From assembly GCA_903821995.1 (NCBI GenBank), contig CAIJNI010000085.1, positions 25,588-89,587 on the forward strand: a DNA stretch of 64,000 nucleotides, in the 5' to 3' direction. Each line of letters opens with the position of its first letter. The stretch's first letter is position 1. Both the position numbers and the translations under genes were made by a program. Positions 52,573 to 64,000 of this stretch are shown one piece after another. This DNA comes from an uncultured beta proteobacterium. Its GTDB lineage: Bacteria > Pseudomonadota > Gammaproteobacteria > Burkholderiales > Burkholderiaceae. The notes under the pieces are model-generated. The model saw only the letters and a program-made list of their open reading frames with translations. It did no database searches and was not told the DNA's origin.

Positions 52573-52662
52573 TGGCGGAAGCTGTGAGATTCGAACTCAC
52601 GGAAGGCTTTCACCTTCACCAGTTTTCAAGACTGGTGCATTCAACCGCTCTGCCAAGCTTCC
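52573..52662 (-). tRNA. tRNA-Ser (anticodon TGA), 90 nt with long variable arm
   Basis: Reverse complement GGAAGCTTGGCAGAGCGGTTGAATGCA-CCAGT-CTTGAAA-ACTGG-TGAAGGTGAAAGCCTTCC-GTGAG-TTCGAAT-CTCAC-AGCTTCC-GCCA folds into a class II cloverleaf with encoded CCA. Confidence 0.97.
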
Positions 52663-52871
52663 TCAATTGAAAAAAGATTATATCCTTTAAATGAGTGAAT
52701 TGCCAATTTTGGAAATAAAGGGCATTTTGGCCTATAGTCAATATTTGATTCACCATAATTGGAGCATCTAGTAATTTTTTATGTTTACTGGGCTACTCTA
52801 GAAATAAAATTGACAGATGATAGATATTCAATATACTTTCTGAATTAAATAAAAATTCTAAAGGGGCATGT

Positions 52872-53231
52872 GTGCGAATAACACAAACCATCACAAAGGG
52901 AATGGGACTATGGACCCTTCTTCAATTTGCCTCATTCTCAGCCTTATCTACAGACTTCATCTCAGCGCAACTTGCTGCCTCATGCACTGGTTGCCATAGT
53001 CCATCCATAACTTCATTCTCATCTTCAAAAAATTCAATAATTCCAAATTTAACTGGCATGCCGAGTGCGTATATTGTTAAAGTAATGCAGGAGTATCAAA
53101 AAGGGGAGCGACAGGCGACGCTGATGCATCAAATTAGTAAAGGCTATACAGAAGAAGAAATATCCCAAATTGCACAGTATTTTTCAACATTGAACCCAGC
53201 TACTCCTTTCAAAAAAGGTATAGCGCCATGA
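52872..53231 (+). CDS. Monoheme class I cytochrome c, putative partner subunit of flavocytochrome c sulfide dehydrogenase
   Basis: CTGCH, P.LTG, R...LMHQIS; ATGA overlap with fccB. The start may be GTG 52872 or a slightly later ATG. Confidence 0.82.
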   Translation: MRITQTITKGMGLWTLLQFASFSALSTDFISAQLAASCTGCHSPSITSFSSSKNSIIPNLTGMPSAYIVKVMQEYQKGERQATLMHQISKGYTEEEISQIAQYFSTLNPATPFKKGIAP

Positions 53232-54505
53232 CGCCACGTCGCAATTTTCTTCATTTGATCTCTGGAATAGGTGTCTTAGCCTATGGTGGGCATCAAGTAT
53301 TCGGCCAATCGAGTCCATTCAAAGCAAAAGTCATCGTTGTTGGTGGTGGCTTTGGAGGGGCGACAGCTGCTAAATACTTAAAAATATTCTCTAACGGAAA
53401 AATAGACGTTACATTAATCGAACCTAATCAACATTTTATTTCGTGTCCAATGTCTAATTTGGTAATCTCTGGGGACAAAAGTATTACAGATATCACTTTT
53501 GGATATGAGCAGTTAGTTAAAAAATATGGTGTTCATTTGATTCATGCCAAAGTAGAACAAATTGATTCTCAGAAAAGAGTGGTTGCTCTCTCTAATGGTA
53601 AGAAACTGAACTATGATCGGCTGGTCTTATCACCGGGAGTTGATTTTCTATTTGAGAAAATTGCGGGATTGGATGAGGATGCTCAAAAAGTAGCCTTACA
53701 TGCATGGAAAGCCGGCCCTCAAACCCTCGCTTTAAAGGCTCAATTAGAGGCAATGCCTGATGGAGGGGTTTATGGAATTTCAATTCCGCTTGCGCCTTAT
53801 CGTTGCCCACCTGGGCCCTATGAGCGTGCTACTTTGATTGCAAACTATTTTAAGCAATTTAAGCCACGCAGCAAAGTGTTGATACTCGATGCCAATCAGG
53901 ATGTTACATCCAAAGGACCTTTATTTAAGAAGATTTGGGCAACGCGTTTTAAAGAGTTGATTGAATATCGAGGATTACATCAAATTGAATCAGTTGATAT
54001 TAAAAACAAGACAATACAATTTGAGGCGCAAGGAGAATTAAAATTAAATATTGTAAATATTTTACCCCCGATGCAGGCGGGTAAAATTGCCGTGGATACA
54101 GGATTGATAAAGCCAAATCAACGCTGGTGTGAAGTCGATTTTCTTACATTTGAGTCCAGGGTGGTTCCTAATATTCATGTGATAGGAGATGCGATTCAGA
54201 ATGCCCAACTGATGCCTAAGTCAGGGCATATGGCAAACCAGCATGGCAAAGTGTGTGCATCAGCAGTGGTTGCGTTATTAAGTGATCATGAGGTTAACCC
54301 GGCACCTATATACAACAATACTTGTTATAGTTTTGTTTCTAAAAATGAAGCAATTCATGTAGCGAGTGTGCATCGCTATGACGCCATTCAAAAAACAATG
54401 TTGCCTGTTCAAGGCGCTGGAGGATTATCTGTTGAAGCAAACGAGCTAGAAGGACTTTATGCGAACTCTTGGGCTAACAATATTTGGTCAGATTTCTTAG
54501 CCTAA
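53228..54505 (+). CDS. fccB: Flavocytochrome c sulfide dehydrogenase flavoprotein subunit (FccB/SoxF)
   Basis: Tat signal RRNFL, GGGFGG, FISCPMSN, YRCPPGPYER, MPKSG..AN, NTCYS. Confidence 0.9.
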   Translation: MTPRRNFLHLISGIGVLAYGGHQVFGQSSPFKAKVIVVGGGFGGATAAKYLKIFSNGKIDVTLIEPNQHFISCPMSNLVISGDKSITDITFGYEQLVKKYGVHLIHAKVEQIDSQKRVVALSNGKKLNYDRLVLSPGVDFLFEKIAGLDEDAQKVALHAWKAGPQTLALKAQLEAMPDGGVYGISIPLAPYRCPPGPYERATLIANYFKQFKPRSKVLILDANQDVTSKGPLFKKIWATRFKELIEYRGLHQIESVDIKNKTIQFEAQGELKLNIVNILPPMQAGKIAVDTGLIKPNQRWCEVDFLTFESRVVPNIHVIGDAIQNAQLMPKSGHMANQHGKVCASAVVALLSDHEVNPAPIYNNTCYSFVSKNEAIHVASVHRYDAIQKTMLPVQGAGGLSVEANELEGLYANSWANNIWSDFLA

Positions 54506-54506
54506 G

Positions 54507-54872
54507 ATGAAATTAAAATTTATATTTTTGGTATATCTATTACAAATATTGAGTATCAATGTTTTTGCACAAGAAAGTGATGTTAAAACTTTGATTAGAT
54601 CTCCGCTATTAGGTAACTGTATTACTTGCCACCAATTTCCTGGTGAAGCTGGTAAGCAGGGTAACTTTGCTCCTAGTTTGATTGGAGTTGGTAAAAAATA
54701 TAATTTAGATCAACTCAAACAATGGATTTCAGATGCTAGAGTTTTAAATCCTAATACATTGATGCCCCCTTTTGGCTCGATTAATGGGTTAAGTCAACCC
54801 ATGGTCAATCAACCCGTATTAACAATTGAACAAATTAATAAAATTGCCCTAGAATTGAAAACTTATAACTAA
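54507..54872 (+). CDS. soxX: SoxX-like cytochrome c
   Basis: GNCITCH, GNFAPSL, NPNTLMPPF (Met ligand); first gene of the soxXYZA order. Confidence 0.82.
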   Translation: MKLKFIFLVYLLQILSINVFAQESDVKTLIRSPLLGNCITCHQFPGEAGKQGNFAPSLIGVGKKYNLDQLKQWISDARVLNPNTLMPPFGSINGLSQPMVNQPVLTIEQINKIALELKTYN

Positions 54873-54877
54873 ACGCA

Positions 54878-55339
54878 ATGAATACAAATATTCTTTCACT
54901 TCGCCGTCTTCTATTAAAAGCTCCTTTAGTTAGTTTGGCATTGCCGCTATTTTCTGAGATTCGATTTGCACAAGCACAACCTAGCAGTGTTATTGACGCT
55001 AAAGCTGAAATCTTAGGTATATCAGTAACTCTTGCGGGCGTAAAAATTATTTTTCCAGAACTTTCTGACAATGGGAATTCTATACCCATTTCTTTTACAG
55101 TTAATCCGCCGCTGGGGAGATCAATTAATCAAATTGAAATTATTGCTCCCGGTAATCCATATCCTAAGCTTCTTAAGATCAATCCGGGGGTGCATTACTT
55201 GGCCTACCAATTTGCGACAAGAATTCGCCTTGCGACTGCACAAAATGTTTGGGTTATCGCCAAGCTAGATAATGATCAGGTCATTGGTGCATTTGCCCCT
55301 ACTGTACTTACCTCATCTTCATGTTGGGACGGCACATAA
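54878..55339 (+). CDS. soxY: SoxY paralogue (sulfur carrier) with non-canonical C-terminal arm SSSCWDGT
   Basis: Tat-like LRRLLLK, P.L.DNG..IP, NPYP, TRIRLA; lacks the GGCGG terminus. Confidence 0.78.
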   Translation: MNTNILSLRRLLLKAPLVSLALPLFSEIRFAQAQPSSVIDAKAEILGISVTLAGVKIIFPELSDNGNSIPISFTVNPPLGRSINQIEIIAPGNPYPKLLKINPGVHYLAYQFATRIRLATAQNVWVIAKLDNDQVIGAFAPTVLTSSSCWDGT

Positions 55340-55683
55340 TGGCAACTCTTGAGAATATGATTAATAGGACTCGGATCACTGTGTCTGAGTCAAAGCAAGA
55401 TGCAAGCCTGTTGGATGTGAAAATCCTTATTGCACACGTGATGGAGAATGGATATAGGTTAAACGACGATAGTCAGCGTATTCCCGCGCATATTATTACT
55501 GACTTGAGTGTCTCTCTTAATAGTGAGGTTGTTTTTTCATTAAGTATTAGTACAGGTATTGCTGCTAACCCAATTTTTATGTTCCCCATTAAAAAACCAG
55601 AAAGGCCAAGTAAGTTAGCGGTAGCTTGGATAGATGATTTGGGAGAAAAAGGATTTGCAACCAAAGAAATCTTTATTCAATGA
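55339..55683 (+). CDS. soxZ: SoxZ-like sulfur carrier partner
   Basis: VKILIAHVMENG.R, IPAHII, IAANP, WIDD.G; TAATG coupling to soxY gives the start at 55339. Confidence 0.82.
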   Translation: MATLENMINRTRITVSESKQDASLLDVKILIAHVMENGYRLNDDSQRIPAHIITDLSVSLNSEVVFSLSISTGIAANPIFMFPIKKPERPSKLAVAWIDDLGEKGFATKEIFIQ

Positions 55684-56432
55684 AGTGGTTAATCCCCTTT
55701 TTGATAGCTTGCTCTTTATGTTGCCAAGCAGAAGAAAGACAATCTGGTAATTTTTTCTTAAGTCCCGATCTAAGGCAGCTTGGATTTGAAAAAGGAGCAA
55801 ATCCAATTGAAATTTGGATTGATATTGGGCAAGTGCTATGGCGCGATAGCTCTAATGGAAAGAGTTGTGAATCATGTCATGGCGCCATGAGTAACCTTAA
55901 GGATGCTGTGAGATCCTTACCTCAAATCTCTCGAGATGGAACCCGGCTAGAAAATCTTGAGGATAAAATTCTTTTTTATCTCAACGCATCTCGTGAAAAA
56001 AAACTTACGCTAGATAGTGATGAAGTTGTGGCATTGAGTGTTGCTATACAGCAAAATGCCAAAGATTCTGTGATTCAAATGCAACCGCAACTCCAGTCCC
56101 AAAGGGTTTGGAATGAACAATTAAAAGCGGGTACTGATTTGTTTTATCAACGTATGGGGCGTATGAACTTATCCTGCTCCCAATGTCATGATCAAAATAT
56201 AGGAAAAAACTTAAGAGCGGATGTGATTAGTCCTGCTTATCCCACGGGATTTCCGGTCTATCGAATGGCTTGGCAAAAGCCAGGTACGATGGATCGACGC
56301 TTGAGGGCTTGTTATTTTGGAGTTCAAGCAAAGGTGCCAGATGTGGGGGATGCTGAGTTAAGACAATTAGAATTGTTTTTAAAAGTGAGGGCACAAGGGA
56401 TGGTCTTAGATGGCCCCTCTTTAAGAAGATAA
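55680..56432 (+). CDS. soxA: SoxA-like diheme cytochrome c (L-cysteine S-thiosulfotransferase family)
   Basis: CESCH and CSQCH heme motifs, GFPVYR, RLRAC active-site Cys; ATGA overlap with soxZ. Confidence 0.85.
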   Translation: MKWLIPFLIACSLCCQAEERQSGNFFLSPDLRQLGFEKGANPIEIWIDIGQVLWRDSSNGKSCESCHGAMSNLKDAVRSLPQISRDGTRLENLEDKILFYLNASREKKLTLDSDEVVALSVAIQQNAKDSVIQMQPQLQSQRVWNEQLKAGTDLFYQRMGRMNLSCSQCHDQNIGKNLRADVISPAYPTGFPVYRMAWQKPGTMDRRLRACYFGVQAKVPDVGDAELRQLELFLKVRAQGMVLDGPSLRR

Positions 56433-56461
56433 AAAAAGTCCGCTAGTTAAATAGCGGACTT
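56431..56461 (-). terminator. Rho-independent terminator for the iorAB-like transcript (possibly shared with the sox genes)
   Basis: AAGTCCGCTA-N6-TAGCGGACTT stem with a T run on the minus strand. Confidence 0.85.
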
Positions 56462-56490
56462 GATGGGAACTTACTTAAAAATGAATGTAA

Positions 56491-58689
56491 TTAAGCCAAC
56501 TTCAGGCCATGTTTGCGTAATGGCAAATCTCTTTGAGGTTTACCGGTTGCTGCAAAAATTGCATTAAGAATGGCCGGACCTACAACACAAATTGTAGGTT
56601 CTCCAACTCCACCCCAGAAATCATTAGTGGGGACTAAAACGGATTCAACTTTTGGCGTGTGTTTTAATCGCGTCAGTTGGTACTTATCAAAGTTTAACTC
56701 CTCTGCGCGGCCATCTTTAATCGTGATTTCGCCATTAAATATTGCAGACATAGCCATAGCCACAGAACCTTCAATTTGCGCCTTAACCTGAGAAGGATTT
56801 ACCACATGACCAGAATTCAGAGCGAAGTACATTTTATGAACTGTGACTTCACCAGCGGGCGTGACTGAGACCTCTGCAACTGCTGCGGAATAACTGGCAT
56901 AACCCATGAACTGAGCAATACCGCGGTGAACTCCGGGTGGCAATGGTTTTCCCCATTTGGCTTTCTTCGCTACTGCATTGAGCACTCCTAAATGTTTAGG
57001 ATGATTCTTCATTAAGGCCCGACGAAATTCTAAGGAATCTTTACCGGCAGCCTTAGCGCACTCTTCAATAAAGCACTCCATATATATGCCATTTTGATTC
57101 GTATTAACACCCCGCCAAGGTCCAACAGGAACATGCGTATTTTTCATCACATATTCAGTTAGTAAATGAGGGAATGTATAACCTAACTGTGCATCACCTG
57201 CCTCCTCATAAAAACCCTGTAATTGGCGCGTATCTTTATTGTTCTTAATTGCCATTGGACTTAATAAGGCATTAATTGATTGGCCACTGACACGAACATG
57301 AAAGCCGGTGATATTGCCTTGATCATCAAGGCCGGCAGACATTTTTGCAACAGAGATTGGTCGATAGAAATCGTGAGACATATCTTCTTCTCGGCTCCAC
57401 ACCAATTTCACAGCAACGCCTGGAAATTGTTTTGCAATTGCAGCAGCTTGGGTTACATAGTCTTGCGTGCCGCCTCTGCGACCTAAGCCACCTCCAAGAT
57501 CGACTTTATAGATTTCACATTTATCCAATGGCAATCCAGTTGCTTGAGCTAATGAGGCATGGGATGCTTCACCATTTTGGGTTGGGACCCAAGCCTCGGC
57601 CTTATCTGCTGTAACTCTGGCTGTGCAATTCATTGGTTCCATAGTGGCATGCGCTAAAAAGGGAGAGCTGTAGACAGCATCGACTCTTTTAGAAGAAGTT
57701 TTAATAGTATTTAACGCATCCCCTTCTTTACGTTGCCAATAGTCGCCTTCAGCCTCGAGTCCATCTCGTAAAACCTTATCAATTGATTGGCTTGAGACTT
57801 TGGCGTTTGGACCTTCGTCCCAAACAATGGGGAGTGCGTCCAGGGCAACCTTAGCGCGCCACCAAGTATCAGCGACGACTGCAACCGTATGACTATCAAC
57901 TTTAACTACTCCCTTGACTCCGCGCATGGCCATAATTTTGGAGTCGTCAAAGCTTTTGAGGGTTCCACCATAAACTGGACAATCTTTAATCGCAGCACAG
58001 AGCATTCCTGGTAATTGGAGATCAATAGCGAACACTTTTGATCCATCGACCTTGTTGGCAGTATCTAGGCGTTTTAGTCCTTTACCAGCAACTTTCCAAT
58101 TCTCAGGCTTCTTTAGGACAATACTTTTTAAATCAGGTGGTGACAAGAGGGCAGCATCGCTAGCCACTTTGCCATAATTGATCTTTCTACCAGTGTTAGC
58201 ATGAGAAATAATCCCTTTGCTCACAGTGAGTTCTTGGACGGGGACTTTCCATTGGTTTGCGGCTGCTTGTAAAAGCATCATACGTGCTGCGGCGCCACCG
58301 CGCCTCACATAATCCTCTGAAGTCCTTATACCGCGACTACCCCCGGTACCCATTTCTCCCCAAACACGCTTACGGGCATGATTTTGTCCAGGAGTTGGCA
58401 TTTCTGTAGTTACTTTTGACCAGTCGCATTCAAGTTCTTCTGCAACAAGTTGAGCAAGTCCAGTGAGGGTCCCTTGTCCCATTTCAGATCGAGCAATACG
58501 AATGACACAGGTGTCATCTGGTTTGATAACGACCCACGCATTAATTTCTTTGACTGTTCCAGTCATGGTCTGTGCACTGAGGTCAAAGGGAATTGCCATA
58601 CCAAGGACAAACCCACCACCTGCCATTGATGTTTGCACCAGGAAGTTTCGACGGGACGGGCTAGTTACTTTATTTAAAGTTGTTGTCAT
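56491..58689 (-). CDS. Xanthine dehydrogenase family molybdopterin-binding subunit (isoquinoline 1-oxidoreductase beta, IorB-like), Tat-exported
   Basis: Minus strand (track mislabels +). SRRNFL, RSEMGQG, TGGS, HATMEPMN, GGGLGRRG, GPWRGV, GGVGEP. Confidence 0.9.
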   Translation of the reverse strand: MTTTLNKVTSPSRRNFLVQTSMAGGGFVLGMAIPFDLSAQTMTGTVKEINAWVVIKPDDTCVIRIARSEMGQGTLTGLAQLVAEELECDWSKVTTEMPTPGQNHARKRVWGEMGTGGSRGIRTSEDYVRRGGAAARMMLLQAAANQWKVPVQELTVSKGIISHANTGRKINYGKVASDAALLSPPDLKSIVLKKPENWKVAGKGLKRLDTANKVDGSKVFAIDLQLPGMLCAAIKDCPVYGGTLKSFDDSKIMAMRGVKGVVKVDSHTVAVVADTWWRAKVALDALPIVWDEGPNAKVSSQSIDKVLRDGLEAEGDYWQRKEGDALNTIKTSSKRVDAVYSSPFLAHATMEPMNCTARVTADKAEAWVPTQNGEASHASLAQATGLPLDKCEIYKVDLGGGLGRRGGTQDYVTQAAAIAKQFPGVAVKLVWSREEDMSHDFYRPISVAKMSAGLDDQGNITGFHVRVSGQSINALLSPMAIKNNKDTRQLQGFYEEAGDAQLGYTFPHLLTEYVMKNTHVPVGPWRGVNTNQNGIYMECFIEECAKAAGKDSLEFRRALMKNHPKHLGVLNAVAKKAKWGKPLPPGVHRGIAQFMGYASYSAAVAEVSVTPAGEVTVHKMYFALNSGHVVNPSQVKAQIEGSVAMAMSAIFNGEITIKDGRAEELNFDKYQLTRLKHTPKVESVLVPTNDFWGGVGEPTICVVGPAILNAIFAATGKPQRDLPLRKHGLKLA

Positions 58690-58700
58690 AATGATTACCC

Positions 58701-59201
58701 TTAAGCTTTAGATGGAGCATCCATAGATGCGTAATTGGCAAGAACTTCAGTTAACTTCTTTTGCCCAGCTGCTACATGAATAGCATCGCGGATTCGTTGA
58801 TAAGTTCCGCAGCGACAAATATTTCCCATTGCAACATCAATATCGGCATCCGTAGGTTTAGGGATTTTCTTAAGTAATGCAGTGGCAACCATAATTTGCC
58901 CAGATTGGCAGTACCCACACTGTGGCACATCAAGATCGTTCCAAGCCTTTTGAACTGCGGTGGAGGCGTTTTTAGATAAGCCCTCGATCGTAGTGATTTT
59001 TTGCCCTTCGACTGCAGACGCAGGGATAGAGCAAGAACGAATGGGATCGCCATTTAAATAGACTGTGCAAGCTCCACATTGAGCTACTCCGCATCCATAT
59101 TTAGTTCCTGTGAGGCCAACAATTTCACGAATAGCCCACAATAAAGGCATTTCTGGTTCTACATCTATATTATGGTTAGTACCGTTTATATTTAGATTCA
59201 T
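58701..59201 (-). CDS. 2x[2Fe-2S] subunit (IorA/CoxS-like)
   Basis: TKYGCG..QCGAC, QCGYCQ, CRCGTY. Confidence 0.93.
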
Positions 59202-59740
59202 TTCAAACTTCCCTCTTTTTTATATAAATTCTAGCTATTGGATATGTTGGTTAAAAGACGCAACTAAAACGCGCATGAAATTTAGACATCATTCTAGCTT
59301 TCAGTCACACATTTAAAAAATTAATTTTTTATAAGTTATCAAGATTTTTTAAGTCTAACCACTATGTTATTAAGTTTAGACTAAGATTTGAAGCTGTTTG
59401 AGGGTTTTACCTAGCTCTAATTTACTATTTTATTGATACAAGACATCAGTATGGGTCTAAGCGGGGTAATTCGAAGCACAATTGATTTAATTTTGTTTTA
59501 AGAAAGAATTCTAAAATTCATATTATTAGTAGATAATGCTTTAGAAGTCTGCCCCGTTTAATTTGGTGATAATGGGGGAATAAGCTGAACTTGAAGCTGG
59601 TTAGGAATTTCCATCATAATTACTTCAAGGAATAATAAGTAATTAAAAGTCCGAAAATGAGTTTAGAAGCTTCCAAGTCATTTACTGAAGTTTTGTAAAT
59701 CGCTTGAAATTTCAGATTAAGGTTAAGGTTTTAAAACAAT

Positions 59741-60973
59741 ATGAGCAATTTCACAAATAAATTAGAAGCCGGTTTGAAAAGTTCACCTGTTGTGGTGTGG
59801 ATGAAAAATAATAAAAAACAATCCTTTGTTATTGCTGGATTTCTTCTGGTTTTAATCATTTGGCTTTTTAGCCTTTTAATATTACAGTTTCAAAAGAAAG
59901 TTGATATCCAACCACAATCTTTACCAACTAACTCTATTTCAGTAAGTGCGGATCAGGCTAAAGAAATCAAGGTGGGGAATATTTCTTATCTTGATTTTGA
60001 AGAAATCAGAGAAGCAGTTGGTTTAATTGATTTTGATAAAAACCATACTGCTGAAGTTTATTCACCCTATCAGGGAAGAGTGGCTAAGGTTTTTAAGGTT
60101 GCAGGTGATGACGTTAAAGAGGGGGATGCATTATTTACCGTGTTAGCTCCAGATGCTGCGCAGGCATCAGCCGCTCTTGTATCTTCAGCCGGTGTCTTAA
60201 AGCAAGCTAATGAAACATTAAAAAGAGCTCAAGAGCTATATGATTTTAAGAGCATATCTCTAAAAGAGTACCAGCAAAATCTTTCAGATCAGCAAACGGC
60301 TGAGGGTAATTATTTGGCCGCCAAAAAATCAATGGAATTATTTGGTTTTACGCAGACAGATATTGCAGAAGTCATTGCTGGTCGTAAAGTGGATATTGAA
60401 TTATCTATTCGAAGTCCTTACAGCGGCAGAGTGGTTTCTAGAGCGGTGGCTGTGGGTCAGTTGGTCCAACCTGGAAATGGCCCCGCGCCCTTTGTTGTGT
60501 CAGATACAACGCACTTATGGATGGTTGCAAACGTACCAGAATCCGAGATTCCTTTGTATCATGTGGGGCAAAGTGCGCACGTCAAAGTACAGGCTTACAT
60601 GGATAAGTTGTATTCTGCAAAGATTATATATGTCGCTGATTCTGTTGATCCGGTGACTCACCGGCTTATTCTGAGAGCTAAGATTGATGACCCAAGGCGT
60701 GAGTTAAGGGCAAACATGTTGGCAAGTTTTGTGATTGGACTCAATCCCCCTATAAATTCGATTGCCATACCAGAAACAGCTTTGGTACGAGACTCCGATG
60801 GAAGTGGGATTGTTTGGGTTACGAATGATGGTAAAAATTTCACACGGCGCATCGTCAAGGTTGGGATATTTCAAGCGGGTTATGTTCAAATTCTGGATGG
60901 ATTGAAAGAGGGGGATTCTATTGCACTGACCAAAGCGATCTACCTTAGCAATCTTTATAGCATTTCACGATAA
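59741..60973 (+). CDS. czcB: RND efflux periplasmic adaptor (CzcB/CusB-like)
   Basis: N-terminal TM anchor, SPYQGRV lipoyl motif, alpha-hairpin, IRSPYSG.V, VDP.T, IPETAL, GLKEGD. Confidence 0.85.
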   Translation: MSNFTNKLEAGLKSSPVVVWMKNNKKQSFVIAGFLLVLIIWLFSLLILQFQKKVDIQPQSLPTNSISVSADQAKEIKVGNISYLDFEEIREAVGLIDFDKNHTAEVYSPYQGRVAKVFKVAGDDVKEGDALFTVLAPDAAQASAALVSSAGVLKQANETLKRAQELYDFKSISLKEYQQNLSDQQTAEGNYLAAKKSMELFGFTQTDIAEVIAGRKVDIELSIRSPYSGRVVSRAVAVGQLVQPGNGPAPFVVSDTTHLWMVANVPESEIPLYHVGQSAHVKVQAYMDKLYSAKIIYVADSVDPVTHRLILRAKIDDPRRELRANMLASFVIGLNPPINSIAIPETALVRDSDGSGIVWVTNDGKNFTRRIVKVGIFQAGYVQILDGLKEGDSIALTKAIYLSNLYSISR

Positions 60974-61006
60974 CAGCTTAATTACTATTGGATGCTAGAT
61001 TAAATA

Positions 61007-64000
61007 ATGTTTAAGCCCTTACTGAAGTTTGTCTTAAGTCGTAGGCCAATAGTTTTATTGGGGCTAGTTGCTTTTATTGTTGCCGGAGTGTTAGCTTTTG
61101 TAAGATTAAACGTAGAAGCTTATCCCAATCCTGCGCCAGTGATTATCGAAATAACAGCTCAATCACCGGGGACTTCTGCTGAAGAAATGGAGCGTTATTA
61201 CACCCGTCCGATGGAGATTGGTTTGGCAACAACTCCCGGGGTTGATATCATTCGGTCTACTTCATTTGCTGGGTTGTCTTTTGTAAGAGTAACTTTTAAG
61301 TATGGCGTTGATTATTATTTTGCACTCACGCAAATTACGAATAATCTTTCTCAAAACGTCAATCTACCGAATGGTGTTTTGCCACAGATCCAAGCATCTA
61401 GTTTGGTGGGAGAAATATTACGATATCAATTAAAAGGGCCTTCAAGCTATAGCTTGACTGACCTGAGGACTCTCCAAAACTGGGTAGTGGTTAGAAGGCT
61501 TTTGACTACACCAGGGATCGTTCAAGTTGTTACTTGGGGTGGGACTACAAAAGAATACCATGTTGAAGTTGACCCTAAAAAATTAGAAAGTTATAGCATT
61601 ACATTGCAGCAGCTTCTGAGCTCAATAGGAAACGCAAATTCTAATGTAGGCGGAAGATCTGTCAGTGTTGGTGACCAATCCATTAATATTCGTGGCGTTG
61701 GACTCATTGCATCGCTCGCAGATATAGAAAAAATTGTGTTGACCCAGGTCAATGGGATACCAATTTCTGTGAGAGATGTGGCAAAAGTTTCTGAAGGTTA
61801 TGTTCCTAGGTTAGGAGAAGCGGGTCGAGATGATCAGAAAGATGTAGTTACTGGCATCATTATCATGAATCGCACTTTGCAAACAAAAGAGGTGATTAAA
61901 CTTGCTGAAGAGGCTGTTGAGCGAATTAATCATGATGGAAGTTTGCCTCAGGGGGTCAAAGTTGTTCCTTATTATGATCGGTCCGGTTTAATTGGGGTAA
62001 CCACTAAAACGGTGATACATAATCTTATTTTTGGTTGCTTATTAGTATTCTTTATTCAGTGGATTTTTTTAGGAGACTTGCGAAGTGCTGTCATTGTTAG
62101 TATTAACATACCGTTCGCACTTTTCTTTAGCATCATCATCCTAACGCTCACTGGCGAATCTGCGAATCTTTTATCTTTAGGCGCTGTCGATTTTGGGATT
62201 ATTGTCGATTCGGCAGTTATTCTTATTGAAAATGTATTTAAAAACTTCCAGCAACGCCCAGAGGATCGAATGCGTATGCTCAGAAAGATGGCCTTTACAT
62301 CTGACAGTGAGGTTGCTGATCCATCTTATGGATGGTCTGTTCGTTTGCGGTTAATTTACTACAGTGCAATTCAGGTGGATACTTCTGTTTTATTCTCTAC
62401 AGCTATTACTATTGCTGCCTTTATTCCATTATTTACAATGCAAGGGGTTGAGGGACAAATTTTTGGCCCTATGTCGCGGACCTATGGTTATGCTTTAGCA
62501 GGAGCATTATTAGCAACTTTCTCTATTACACCCGTGATTGCATCCTATTTCTTGCCGCGTAGAATAGAGGAAAAAGAGACAAAAATTGTTCAAGCCATTC
62601 GCGATTTTTATACTCCTAAATTGCATTGGGTAACAAGCCACACAAAGCCGATTTTGGCGATTGGAGCTGCTTCTCTATTGTTAGGTGGCTTCATGATGAG
62701 CCAACTTGGCAGTGAATTTTTGCCTGCTCTTGAAGAAGGCAATTTATGGATTAGAGCTTCCATGCCACCCACAATCTCGTTGGAGGCGGGTACTGAAAAC
62801 GTTCACCGGATGCGTCAAATCATTAAAGCGCATCCTGAAGTTATCACTATAGTTTCGCAGCATGGTCGACCCGATGACGGAAGTGATGCTTCTGGTTTTA
62901 ATAACGTAGAGCTATTCGCAGCCCTTAAGCCTTTTGAAGAATGGGATAAAGGGATGACAAAAGAAAAGCTTGTTGCAAATCTTCAAAAAGAATTCGAAGA
63001 TGCATTCCCAGGGGTAACTACAAATTTTTCACAATATATTCAAGATAACGTTCAAGAGGGCTTGTCTGGAGTTAAGGGAGCTAATTCAGTTAAGATTATC
63101 GGTCCTGACTTAGTGACATTAGAAGGAATAGCTACCCAAGTTAAAAAGATTATGGAGACTATTCCAGGGGTGACTGATTTAGGTATTTTTTACATCATGG
63201 GTCAGCCTAATTTAGATATTCGCATTGACCGTGATAAGGCGGCTCGGTTTGGGCTAAATACAGGCGATGTTAACGCTGCAATCCAAGCTGCTTTTGCTGG
63301 TACTGTAGCGACTACTGTTTTGCAAGGTGAGCGTCATTTTGATCTGACTGTTCGTTTAAAAGCGGAAAGTCGAATGAATATCCAAGATGTTAAGAATTTA
63401 AGGGTTGGGTATACAACTTCAAGTGGAAGTGTTGCTTATATCCCGTTGGATGATATCGCTAAAATCACTTTAGATACTGGAGCGAGCTATATTTATCATG
63501 AAAAAAATGAGAGGTATATCCCTATTAAGTTTAGTACTCGTGGAAGAGATCTTGGTAGCACGGTGCAAGATATTCAAGATCGAATTACTCAAGAAGTACC
63601 TCTGCCAGAAGGGTATCGCATTACTTATGCTGGAGAATTTGAAGAGATGCAAGCTGCGCAAAAACGCTTAGCAATTGTTGTGCCCATTGCTTTTGCCTTG
63701 ATCTTTGCGTTTTTGTATGCACTCTTTAATAATTTAACTTATTGCTTGTTAACGTTTTCAGGCGTACCGTTTGCCGCATTAGGTGGTGTAGTTGCTTTGT
63801 ATATCTCTGGTCAAGCGCTAAGTGTTTCAGCAATTATTGGTTTTATCTCATTACTTGGCGTTTCAGTCATGAACGGTATTTTGATTCAAACCTTTTTTGT
63901 GGATTTGCTGCATTCAGGTAAGTCGAAGTTGGATGCGGTCATTGAGGCTCATGAACATCGTATGAGACCTTTATTAATGACAGCTCTTTCTGCTGCGATT
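61007..64000 (+). CDS. czcA: Heavy-metal efflux RND permease, CzcA type; open at the 3' window edge
   Basis: Not in the track. ATG 61007 reads MFKPLLKFVLSRRP...VEAYPNP; TM4 AVDFGIIVDSAVILIEN; the window ends in frame at MRPLLMTALSAAI. Confidence 0.88.
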   Translation, partial: MFKPLLKFVLSRRPIVLLGLVAFIVAGVLAFVRLNVEAYPNPAPVIIEITAQSPGTSAEEMERYYTRPMEIGLATTPGVDIIRSTSFAGLSFVRVTFKYGVDYYFALTQITNNLSQNVNLPNGVLPQIQASSLVGEILRYQLKGPSSYSLTDLRTLQNWVVVRRLLTTPGIVQVVTWGGTTKEYHVEVDPKKLESYSITLQQLLSSIGNANSNVGGRSVSVGDQSINIRGVGLIASLADIEKIVLTQVNGIPISVRDVAKVSEGYVPRLGEAGRDDQKDVVTGIIIMNRTLQTKEVIKLAEEAVERINHDGSLPQGVKVVPYYDRSGLIGVTTKTVIHNLIFGCLLVFFIQWIFLGDLRSAVIVSINIPFALFFSIIILTLTGESANLLSLGAVDFGIIVDSAVILIENVFKNFQQRPEDRMRMLRKMAFTSDSEVADPSYGWSVRLRLIYYSAIQVDTSVLFSTAITIAAFIPLFTMQGVEGQIFGPMSRTYGYALAGALLATFSITPVIASYFLPRRIEEKETKIVQAIRDFYTPKLHWVTSHTKPILAIGAASLLLGGFMMSQLGSEFLPALEEGNLWIRASMPPTISLEAGTENVHRMRQIIKAHPEVITIVSQHGRPDDGSDASGFNNVELFAALKPFEEWDKGMTKEKLVANLQKEFEDAFPGVTTNFSQYIQDNVQEGLSGVKGANSVKIIGPDLVTLEGIATQVKKIMETIPGVTDLGIFYIMGQPNLDIRIDRDKAARFGLNTGDVNAAIQAAFAGTVATTVLQGERHFDLTVRLKAESRMNIQDVKNLRVGYTTSSGSVAYIPLDDIAKITLDTGASYIYHEKNERYIPIKFSTRGRDLGSTVQDIQDRITQEVPLPEGYRITYAGEFEEMQAAQKRLAIVVPIAFALIFAFLYALFNNLTYCLLTFSGVPFAALGGVVALYISGQALSVSAIIGFISLLGVSVMNGILIQTFFVDLLHSGKSKLDAVIEAHEHRMRPLLMTALSAAI

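Follow-up and report, generated by a model that had tools for sequence, protein, structure and literature searches.

Genes at the locus

We investigated a stretch of 64,000 nucleotides (hereafter, the window) from an uncultured beta proteobacterium of the family Burkholderiaceae (GCA_903821995.1; contig CAIJNI010000085.1, positions 25,588 to 89,587 of the forward strand). In it, the genes of a predicted molybdenum (Mo) hydroxylase of the xanthine oxidase (XO) family, here called iorA and iorB, run head-on into a cluster of sox-like genes. The neighbourhood of an IorAB-type enzyme and a variant SoxYZ carrier is conserved across Alpha- and Betaproteobacteria. Positions of open reading frames (ORFs) are given in window coordinates, and domains were called with Pfam and NCBIfam.

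The minus strand carries the iorA-like gene for the small subunit (58701..59201, 166 aa; Pfam Fer2_2 with 94 bits and Fer2 with 37 bits) and the iorB-like gene for the molybdopterin-binding large subunit (56491..58689, 732 aa; Pfam MoCoBD_1 and MoCoBD_2). The sox-like unit lies on the plus strand in the order cytochrome c, fccB, soxX, soxY, soxZ and soxA. It begins with a small mono-haem cytochrome c (52872..53231; CTGCH, weak match to Pfam Cytochrom_C) and an fccB/soxF-like flavoprotein of the flavocytochrome c sulfide dehydrogenase (FCSD) type (53228..54505), which has the twin-arginine translocation (Tat) motif RRNFL and matches FCSD_central with 131 bits and FCSD-flav_bind with 77 bits. 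These are followed by a soxX paralogue encoding a mono-haem protein (54507..54872; CITCH, Sec signal), a variant SoxY carrier with a Tat-like LRRLLL (54878..55339; Pfam SoxY, 52 bits), a soxZ paralogue without a signal peptide (55321..55683; Pfam SoxZ, 75 bits) and a soxA paralogue encoding a dihaem protein with a Sec signal (55680..56432; Pfam SoxA-TsdA_cyt-c).

The molybdenum enzyme

Two [2Fe-2S] binding domains (Fer2 and Fer2_2) are present in IorA, with two four-cysteine motifs that can be read from the translation (C37/42/45/57 and C95/98/129/131). The large subunit starts with a Tat motif, S12-R-R-N-F-L17, and IorA is probably exported bound to it, since no signal peptide was found in the small subunit. 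The NCBIfam matches of IorA are only to small subunits of Mo hydroxylases, every one under its equivalog cut-off, and both subunits could be placed at the family level only, with all equivalogs, among them XdhA, PaoC, CoxL and 4-hydroxybenzoyl-CoA reductase, far under cut-off. By sequence, the closest solved structure to IorB is chain C of PDB 8GY3 (E 9.5e-64, residues 8-726), at about 25-30% identity. The same chain is the best PDB match (template modelling score, TM, 0.82) of an AlphaFold model of IorB made from 26 relatives (predicted local distance difference test, pLDDT, 77.5; predicted TM, pTM, 0.79), while PaoC, 4-hydroxybenzoyl-CoA reductase, quinoline oxidoreductase, xanthine oxidase and carbon monoxide (CO) dehydrogenase reach 0.54-0.61. 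The catalytic Glu697 stands in GGVGEP, aligned with GLGEP of 8GY3_C, and the segment W692-I700 that includes it is invariant in the 26 relatives.

No gene for a flavin adenine dinucleotide (FAD) subunit adjoins iorAB; the unit consists of these two genes alone and is bounded by a terminator on one side and a 539-bp gap on the other. An adjoining ORF for a multi-haem cytochrome c was not found in the window either; the haem proteins near iorAB are the mono-haem cytochrome c, SoxX and the dihaem SoxA, all of them in the sox-like unit. A preliminary description of this DNA had reported a 2Fe-2S subunit, a Mo subunit with a Tat signal (SRRNFL) and no FAD subunit, which the ORFs, Pfam domains and motif bear out. 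As predicted from sequence and model, IorAB is a periplasmic, Tat-exported Mo hydroxylase of two subunits, without a FAD subunit, that belongs to the structural subclass of IorAB and the membrane aldehyde dehydrogenases; by its sequence the enzyme is intact.

The Sox-like unit and its variant carrier

The SoxA and SoxX paralogues pass the curated cut-offs (TIGR04484, 163.9 bits with a cut-off of 110; TIGR04485, 65.9 bits with a cut-off of 61), and SoxZ falls slightly under its own (TIGR04490, 73.1 bits, cut-off 76). In SoxA, the haem motifs C63xxCH and C166xxCH and the distal Cys211 are invariant columns in 17 partners. SoxY is under both cut-offs available to it, with 57.8 bits for TIGR04487 (cut-off 172) and 50.1 bits for TIGR04488 (cut-off 125). 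Its carrier arm reads LTSSSC(149)WDGT, not GGCGG. Cys149 aligns with the carrier cysteine of Paracoccus SoxY (PDB 2OX5) and, together with T145, the threonine at -4, is invariant in an alignment of 21 IorB-linked SoxY proteins. The small cytochrome c is probably an FccA-type partner of FccB, and a like cytochrome is found 5' of fccB in four other loci (L056, L074, L075 and L077). The cluster contains no SoxB or SoxC, and neither was found in those large ORFs of the window that were checked. By their own signals or through hitch-hiking partners, the eight proteins of both units are predicted to be periplasmic.

SoxY and SoxZ also match weakly an NCBIfam family (TIGR04557) of SoxYZ-like carriers tied to periplasmic quinoprotein dehydrogenases, which is compatible with a carrier that bears carbon. 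By analogy with the glutathione-dependent oxidation of formaldehyde, the SoxY cysteine could trap a periplasmic aldehyde as a thiohemiacetal that IorAB would oxidize to a thioester. This would be ordinary chemistry for the XO family, whose member closest in structure to IorB is an aldehyde dehydrogenase. On the other hand, it leaves unexplained the usual presence of SoxXA, with SoxA and SoxX above their curated cut-offs, and of a sulfide dehydrogenase of the FCSD type, and we regard it as distinctly unlikely.

The junction between the two units

The stops of soxA (56432) and iorB (56491) are separated by 58 bp, so that the units are convergent. Within this gap there is an intrinsic terminator hairpin (56436..56461, minus strand; terminator scan and RNA fold) with a 10-bp stem (GTCCGCTA.../...TAGCGGAC), with U7 after it in the iorAB transcript and without a U-run on the soxA side. 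Its RNA fold has -15.4 kcal/mol (z = -5.98), and none of 200 shuffles was equally stable. The 58-bp distance, the single hairpin and the head-on orientation given in the preliminary description are confirmed, head-on meaning here convergent, stop to stop. The iorAB unit and the sox-like unit are transcribed separately and towards each other, with a single terminator where they meet.

Just 5' of the sox-like unit, a consensus scan gave a promoter-like TTGACA-16-TATACT (52810..52837, plus strand, 11/12). The AT-rich region of 539 bp 5' of iorA (59202..59740), which iorA has in common with a divergent gene for a resistance-nodulation-division (RND) adaptor, contains no minus-strand sigma-70-like match, and no Mo cofactor riboswitch or other Rfam element was found near iorA. 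Matches of 12 nt with 1 mismatch between the two upstream regions number 8, with a mean of 3 in shuffles. The sole candidate for a shared motif is TTTAAATG(A/T)GTGA at 52686 and 59304. It corresponds to a 13-mer with one mismatch, TTTAAATGAGTGA (52686-52698, 5' of the cytochrome gene) and TTTAAATGTGTGA (59304-59316, minus strand, 5' of iorA), which is insignificant compared with shuffles in such AT-rich DNA.

Conservation of the neighbourhood

We searched the flanks of the 80 best genomic loci with IorB relatives (56-73% identity). Within 10 kb, soxYZ is found in 39 of the 80, soxA in 36, soxX in 31 and fccB in 20. The convergent layout of the window was found in Comamonadaceae, Limnohabitans and Burkholderiaceae, while Thiobacillus and other Betaproteobacteria have iorAB-soxXYZA in one direction. 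The order is soxXYZA-iorAB in L076 and iorAB-(cytochrome c)-fccB-soxXYZA in Bradyrhizobium and Microvirga, and the layout is divergent in L151 and L098. The linkage of this IorB clade to genes of SoxYZ without GGCGG extends over Alpha- and Betaproteobacteria and takes four layouts or more. Single-linkage clustering of the raw ORFs of the 80 loci revealed no other gene family that recurs beside iorAB across taxa. A transporter of the MFS family does so in the Bradyrhizobium lineage only, and neither a multi-haem cytochrome subunit ORF nor an XdhC/PaoD-like maturation gene recurs among the neighbours.

For the reverse search, the linked SoxA proteins were aligned and used to seed a scan of metagenomes, which returned 80 loci. 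SoxY is present at 57 of them, with iorAB at 30, and 24 more are cut too close for a call. Only three SoxY loci (L081, L097 and L114) are without iorAB where 600 bp or more is available on each side, which leaves iorAB in 30 of the 33 decidable loci. The preliminary description had made its proposed link depend on a synteny between IorB and the Sox paralogues that is kept among related genomes, and such synteny is what both searches found. It had also asked whether iorAB lies beside SoxY without GGCGG more often than beside canonical SoxY. The first half of this comparison holds, since none of the 98 neighbouring SoxY proteins of both sets has a GGCGG arm. The other half lacks a canonical set, as the scan gave variant-type clusters only; canonical sox clusters are, to our knowledge, without iorAB. 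In the 98 proteins, 3-8 residues follow the carrier cysteine, and Asp or Glu is found at Cys+2 in 93.

SoxYZ is the sole constant partner of iorAB among the sox-linked loci, and two of these (L046 and L064) have iorAB and soxYZ with no CxxCH-bearing ORF within -2.5/+7 kb. Both observations bear on the possibility that the neighbours serve only as an electron wire, in which case IorAB would oxidize a soluble aldehyde or N-heterocycle, with SoxXA and the FccA-like cytochrome as acceptors in place of a tri-haem subunit. The closest structure, 8GY3, is indeed an aldehyde dehydrogenase, and its complex includes a (tri-haem) cytochrome subunit; IorAB is without a cytochrome subunit gene of its own, and soxXA is present in most partner loci. 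However, the invariant partner is SoxYZ and not a cytochrome, so that cytochromes as acceptors, one of the two ideas of the preliminary description, are not the whole story, and the SoxY arm, always non-canonical and co-varying with the IorB clade, would be left unexplained. A carrier-enzyme link is therefore favoured over a simple acceptor link, and we consider the wire explanation unlikely.

As judged from these sequences, iorAB and the variant SoxYZ are the halves of a conserved gene module, which in most cases includes SoxXA and often an FccB-type sulfide dehydrogenase as well. It is highly probable that the Mo hydroxylase and the Sox-like carrier are functionally linked in some way, because the synteny is conserved over Alpha- and Betaproteobacteria in varied arrangements.

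Some loci depart from the common pattern. Of the metagenome loci, L081:1420-3487 has the SoxA most similar to that of the window (48% identity). Its genes soxX-soxY-soxZ-soxA are located between an alpha/beta hydrolase gene and prmC/prfA-like genes, and the SoxY arm is SSACFDAS; no iorAB was found within 1.4-1.6 kb on either side, which makes it an exception to the pairing. L047:1-7558 has two SoxY-SoxZ pairs flanking iorAB on one strand, which suggests that the carrier was duplicated within the module. In L082:9497-10702, on a high-GC metagenome contig, one ORF of 401 aa combines a SoxX-like and a SoxA-like portion and shares 49% identity with the SoxA of the window. It is solitary, SoxYZ being absent from the 9 kb upstream and the 3 kb downstream of it. 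When the SoxY of the window was used in a word-based search, only 3 proteins were returned; the only longer context, of 7.7 kb, has soxY-soxZ-soxA followed by a convergent cut ORF, which would fit the layout of the window.

Phylogeny of IorB and carrier arm types

A maximum-likelihood tree was built from 98 full-length IorB rows and rooted at the midpoint. Their layouts are co-directional with fccB (25), co-directional (24), convergent (9), divergent (1), without sox genes (22) or cut (17). The clade of the window contains 13 rows (Shimodaira-Hasegawa-like approximate likelihood ratio test, SH-aLRT, 98), 8 of them convergent, 1 co-directional and 4 on cut contigs. All 8 convergent loci have stop-to-stop gaps of 1-58 bp, and the IorB proteins of this convergent clade share only 65-73% identity with that of the window.

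These values are relevant to whether the two units in the window's genome are linked at all, or are mere neighbours with a common terminator. The units are convergent and transcribed separately, the motif common to their upstream regions is not above the AT-rich background, and L081, the closest SoxA locus of the metagenome scan, has soxXYZA without iorAB near it. Mere neighbourhood is nevertheless very improbable in our view, given that the convergent adjacency has been kept across a clade of such divergence and that the same gene sets are joined in single operons in other lineages.

The window represents a low-GC freshwater betaproteobacterial subtype, with the module split into convergent units. 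The G+C content of its sister locus L013 is 0.37-0.41, compared with 0.37-0.46 in the window. In L013:1043-7470, the gene of the FCSD flavoprotein is placed directly 5' of iorA, in the iorAB unit rather than in the sox unit. Genes have thus shifted between the units while the neighbourhood was kept, which argues for one functional module. No small cytochrome gene stands beside the FCSD gene of L013, and a gene for a CHAD-domain protein is found 5' of its soxX.

The type of carrier arm follows the IorB clade. One side of the root has mostly AAC-x-E, the type that passes TIGR04487, and the other mostly (S/T)AC-x-D. L003:9489-16133 combines one iorA with two tandem iorB paralogues from different clades, followed by soxX-soxY-soxZ. 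The first iorB is of the window's type (72% identical to that of the window) and the second belongs to the clade on the Bradyrhizobium side (75% to L157); the SoxY arm, TLAACTEV, matches the type paired with the clade of the second paralogue. This pattern and the case of L003 fit a direct relationship between enzyme and carrier, although a co-inherited gene block would give the same pattern.

A possible route of sulfur oxidation

Oxidation on a carrier protein has its textbook example in the Sox pathway, whose enzymes SoxXA, SoxB and SoxCD are considered known. In the present module, a Mo enzyme of another class is consistently paired with a variant carrier whose arm change is patterned, in many soil and lake bacteria, among them Bradyrhizobium, Limnohabitans-type Comamonadaceae and Thiobacillus. 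We suggest that FccAB and/or SoxXA would load sulfur derived from sulfide onto Cys149 of the variant SoxY, and that IorAB would oxidize the carrier-bound adduct with oxygen derived from water, standing in for the absent SoxCD/SoxB. Electrons would leave through the two [2Fe-2S] clusters of IorAB to periplasmic c-type cytochromes. The chemistry of a sulfur adduct on Cys149 is a tentative proposal, to which we give something like one chance in three. Taken as a whole, a conserved module with oxidation of a sulfur adduct is our best explanation, and the chances of its being right are somewhat short of even.

A bolder form of the proposal is possible, though rather doubtful: IorAB would be the first XO-family molybdoenzyme with a protein-tethered substrate, a persulfide or polysulfide on the variant SoxY, and with FccAB and SoxXA it would constitute a sulfide oxidation independent of SoxB and SoxCD, widespread in freshwater and soil Proteobacteria. 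Should IorAB indeed act on the carrier, the xanthine oxidase family would gain a new type of reaction and bacterial sulfur oxidation a new branch, one that matters for the turnover of sulfide in oxic freshwater and soil. Otherwise, a conserved module noticed in 2013 still wants an explanation.

Several points weigh against this proposal. As far as we know, enzymes of the XO family hydroxylate sp2 carbon and oxidize CO, and do not oxidize sulfane sulfur. Product release in a scheme without SoxB lacks an explanation. In the window, each unit is transcribed on its own, and no operator common to both upstream regions rises above the AT-rich background. The locus had no matches in RNA-seq runs, the DNA runs that contain it being lake and freshwater metagenomes. 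There are also the 22 IorB loci without sox genes within at least 3 kb on both sides, in clades nested among sox-linked ones. No column of the IorB alignment separates them from the sox-linked loci and no family-specific cysteine was found, so that either these genomes have their sox genes elsewhere or the enzyme works without them. Finally, the second sox cluster of Starkeya novella, compared below, showed barely any expression when tested with glucose, methanol or thiosulfate (PMC3797975).

The same 22 loci bear on another role for the carrier, the care of the cofactor, which the preliminary description had raised as a supply or recycling of sulfur. A persulfide formed by Fcc, SoxXA and SoxYZ could install or restore the terminal Mo=S of an IorAB whose substrate is soluble. 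Enzymes of the XO family need this terminal sulfido ligand, which a protein persulfide supplies in the cytoplasm. The pairing of carrier and enzyme and the sulfide-oxidizing FccB are compatible with such a function without pointing to it specifically, and so is the lack of a recurring XdhC/PaoD-like maturation gene among the conserved neighbours. Up to six genes would be costly for repair, however, and the 22 loci of the same family, column for column indistinguishable, do without sox genes nearby. Moreover, Tat export normally takes place after cofactor insertion and sulfuration. We find this role improbable and keep the oxidation of a carrier-bound sulfur adduct as the preferred reading.

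Surroundings of the locus

Upstream of iorA and divergent from it, a CzcB/CusB-type RND adaptor gene and a large RND pump gene, open at the window end, occupy 59741-64000, with no outer-membrane factor gene ahead of them. On the other side, a tRNA-Ser(TGA) gene (52573-52662, minus strand) lies about 150 bp 5' of the promoter-like sequence that precedes the sox-like unit. The G+C content is 0.45 in iorAB and 0.37-0.40 in the sox genes. With the tRNA-Ser gene and this difference in G+C, the whole block could have been acquired as an island.

Comparison with known systems

The closest published counterpart was found in Starkeya novella, whose second sox cluster, soxX2Y2Z2A2F2 (Snov_1982-1977), lacks soxB and is accompanied by an XO-family Mo enzyme, Snov_1975/1976 (Kappler et al. 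2013, PMC3797975). It was also the only report of a Mo enzyme paired with a variant sox cluster that full-text literature searches returned. The pairing has been in print since 2013, without an assigned function, and the preliminary description was overstated in presenting the link as new. Compared by the published description, both clusters have SoxXA, SoxYZ, a SoxF/FccB-type flavoprotein and a two-gene XO-family molybdoenzyme, and neither has SoxB or SoxCD. The window thus contains what defines this type of module, an XO-family Mo enzyme by soxXYZA with a SoxY other than GGCGG and no soxB or soxCD. It differs in that the Mo enzyme of Starkeya novella is described as belonging to one operon with the sox genes, while the window has two convergent units with a terminator between them; in the IorB clade of the window, 8 relatives likewise have no single operon. 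In contrast with the Starkeya novella cluster, the SoxY of the window is also far more divergent, with its arm SSSCWDGT and its score far under TIGR04487. In Bradyrhizobium diazoefficiens, thiosulfate oxidation needs soxY1 only, and not soxY2 (PMC5748708), which is presumably the counterpart there of the variant soxY.

The enzyme itself resembles the membrane-bound aldehyde dehydrogenase of Gluconobacter oxydans (8GY3) and the IorAB type in the full-length alignment of the large subunit, a small subunit that carries two [2Fe-2S] clusters, the catalytic Glu, the Tat signal on the large subunit and the lack of a FAD subunit. Unlike the AldFGH type of 8GY3, it has no gene for a tri-haem cytochrome subunit, and the conserved partner of iorAB is a carrier of the SoxYZ type. 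With canonical Sox (the Kelly-Friedrich pathway of Paracoccus pantotrophus) the sox-like unit shares SoxA and SoxX above cut-offs, the folds of SoxY and SoxZ, and an aligned carrier cysteine; its arm is not GGCGG, however, and no SoxB or SoxCD is found nearby.

The NCBIfam family TIGR04487, named 'SoxY-related AACIE arm protein', includes the IorAB-linked SoxY proteins of Bradyrhizobium and Microvirga, which score 206-227 bits. The arm of the window follows the same logic, an invariant Thr at -4, the Cys, and then a hydrophobic and an acidic residue. Together with a Comamonadaceae-type relative (L001), the SoxY of the window reaches only 58-61 bits and forms a divergent subtype outside the curated family. 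To the module known from single operons, the window adds a split, convergent subtype in which the linkage is kept without co-transcription and the carrier lies beyond the AACIE-arm proteins curated so far.

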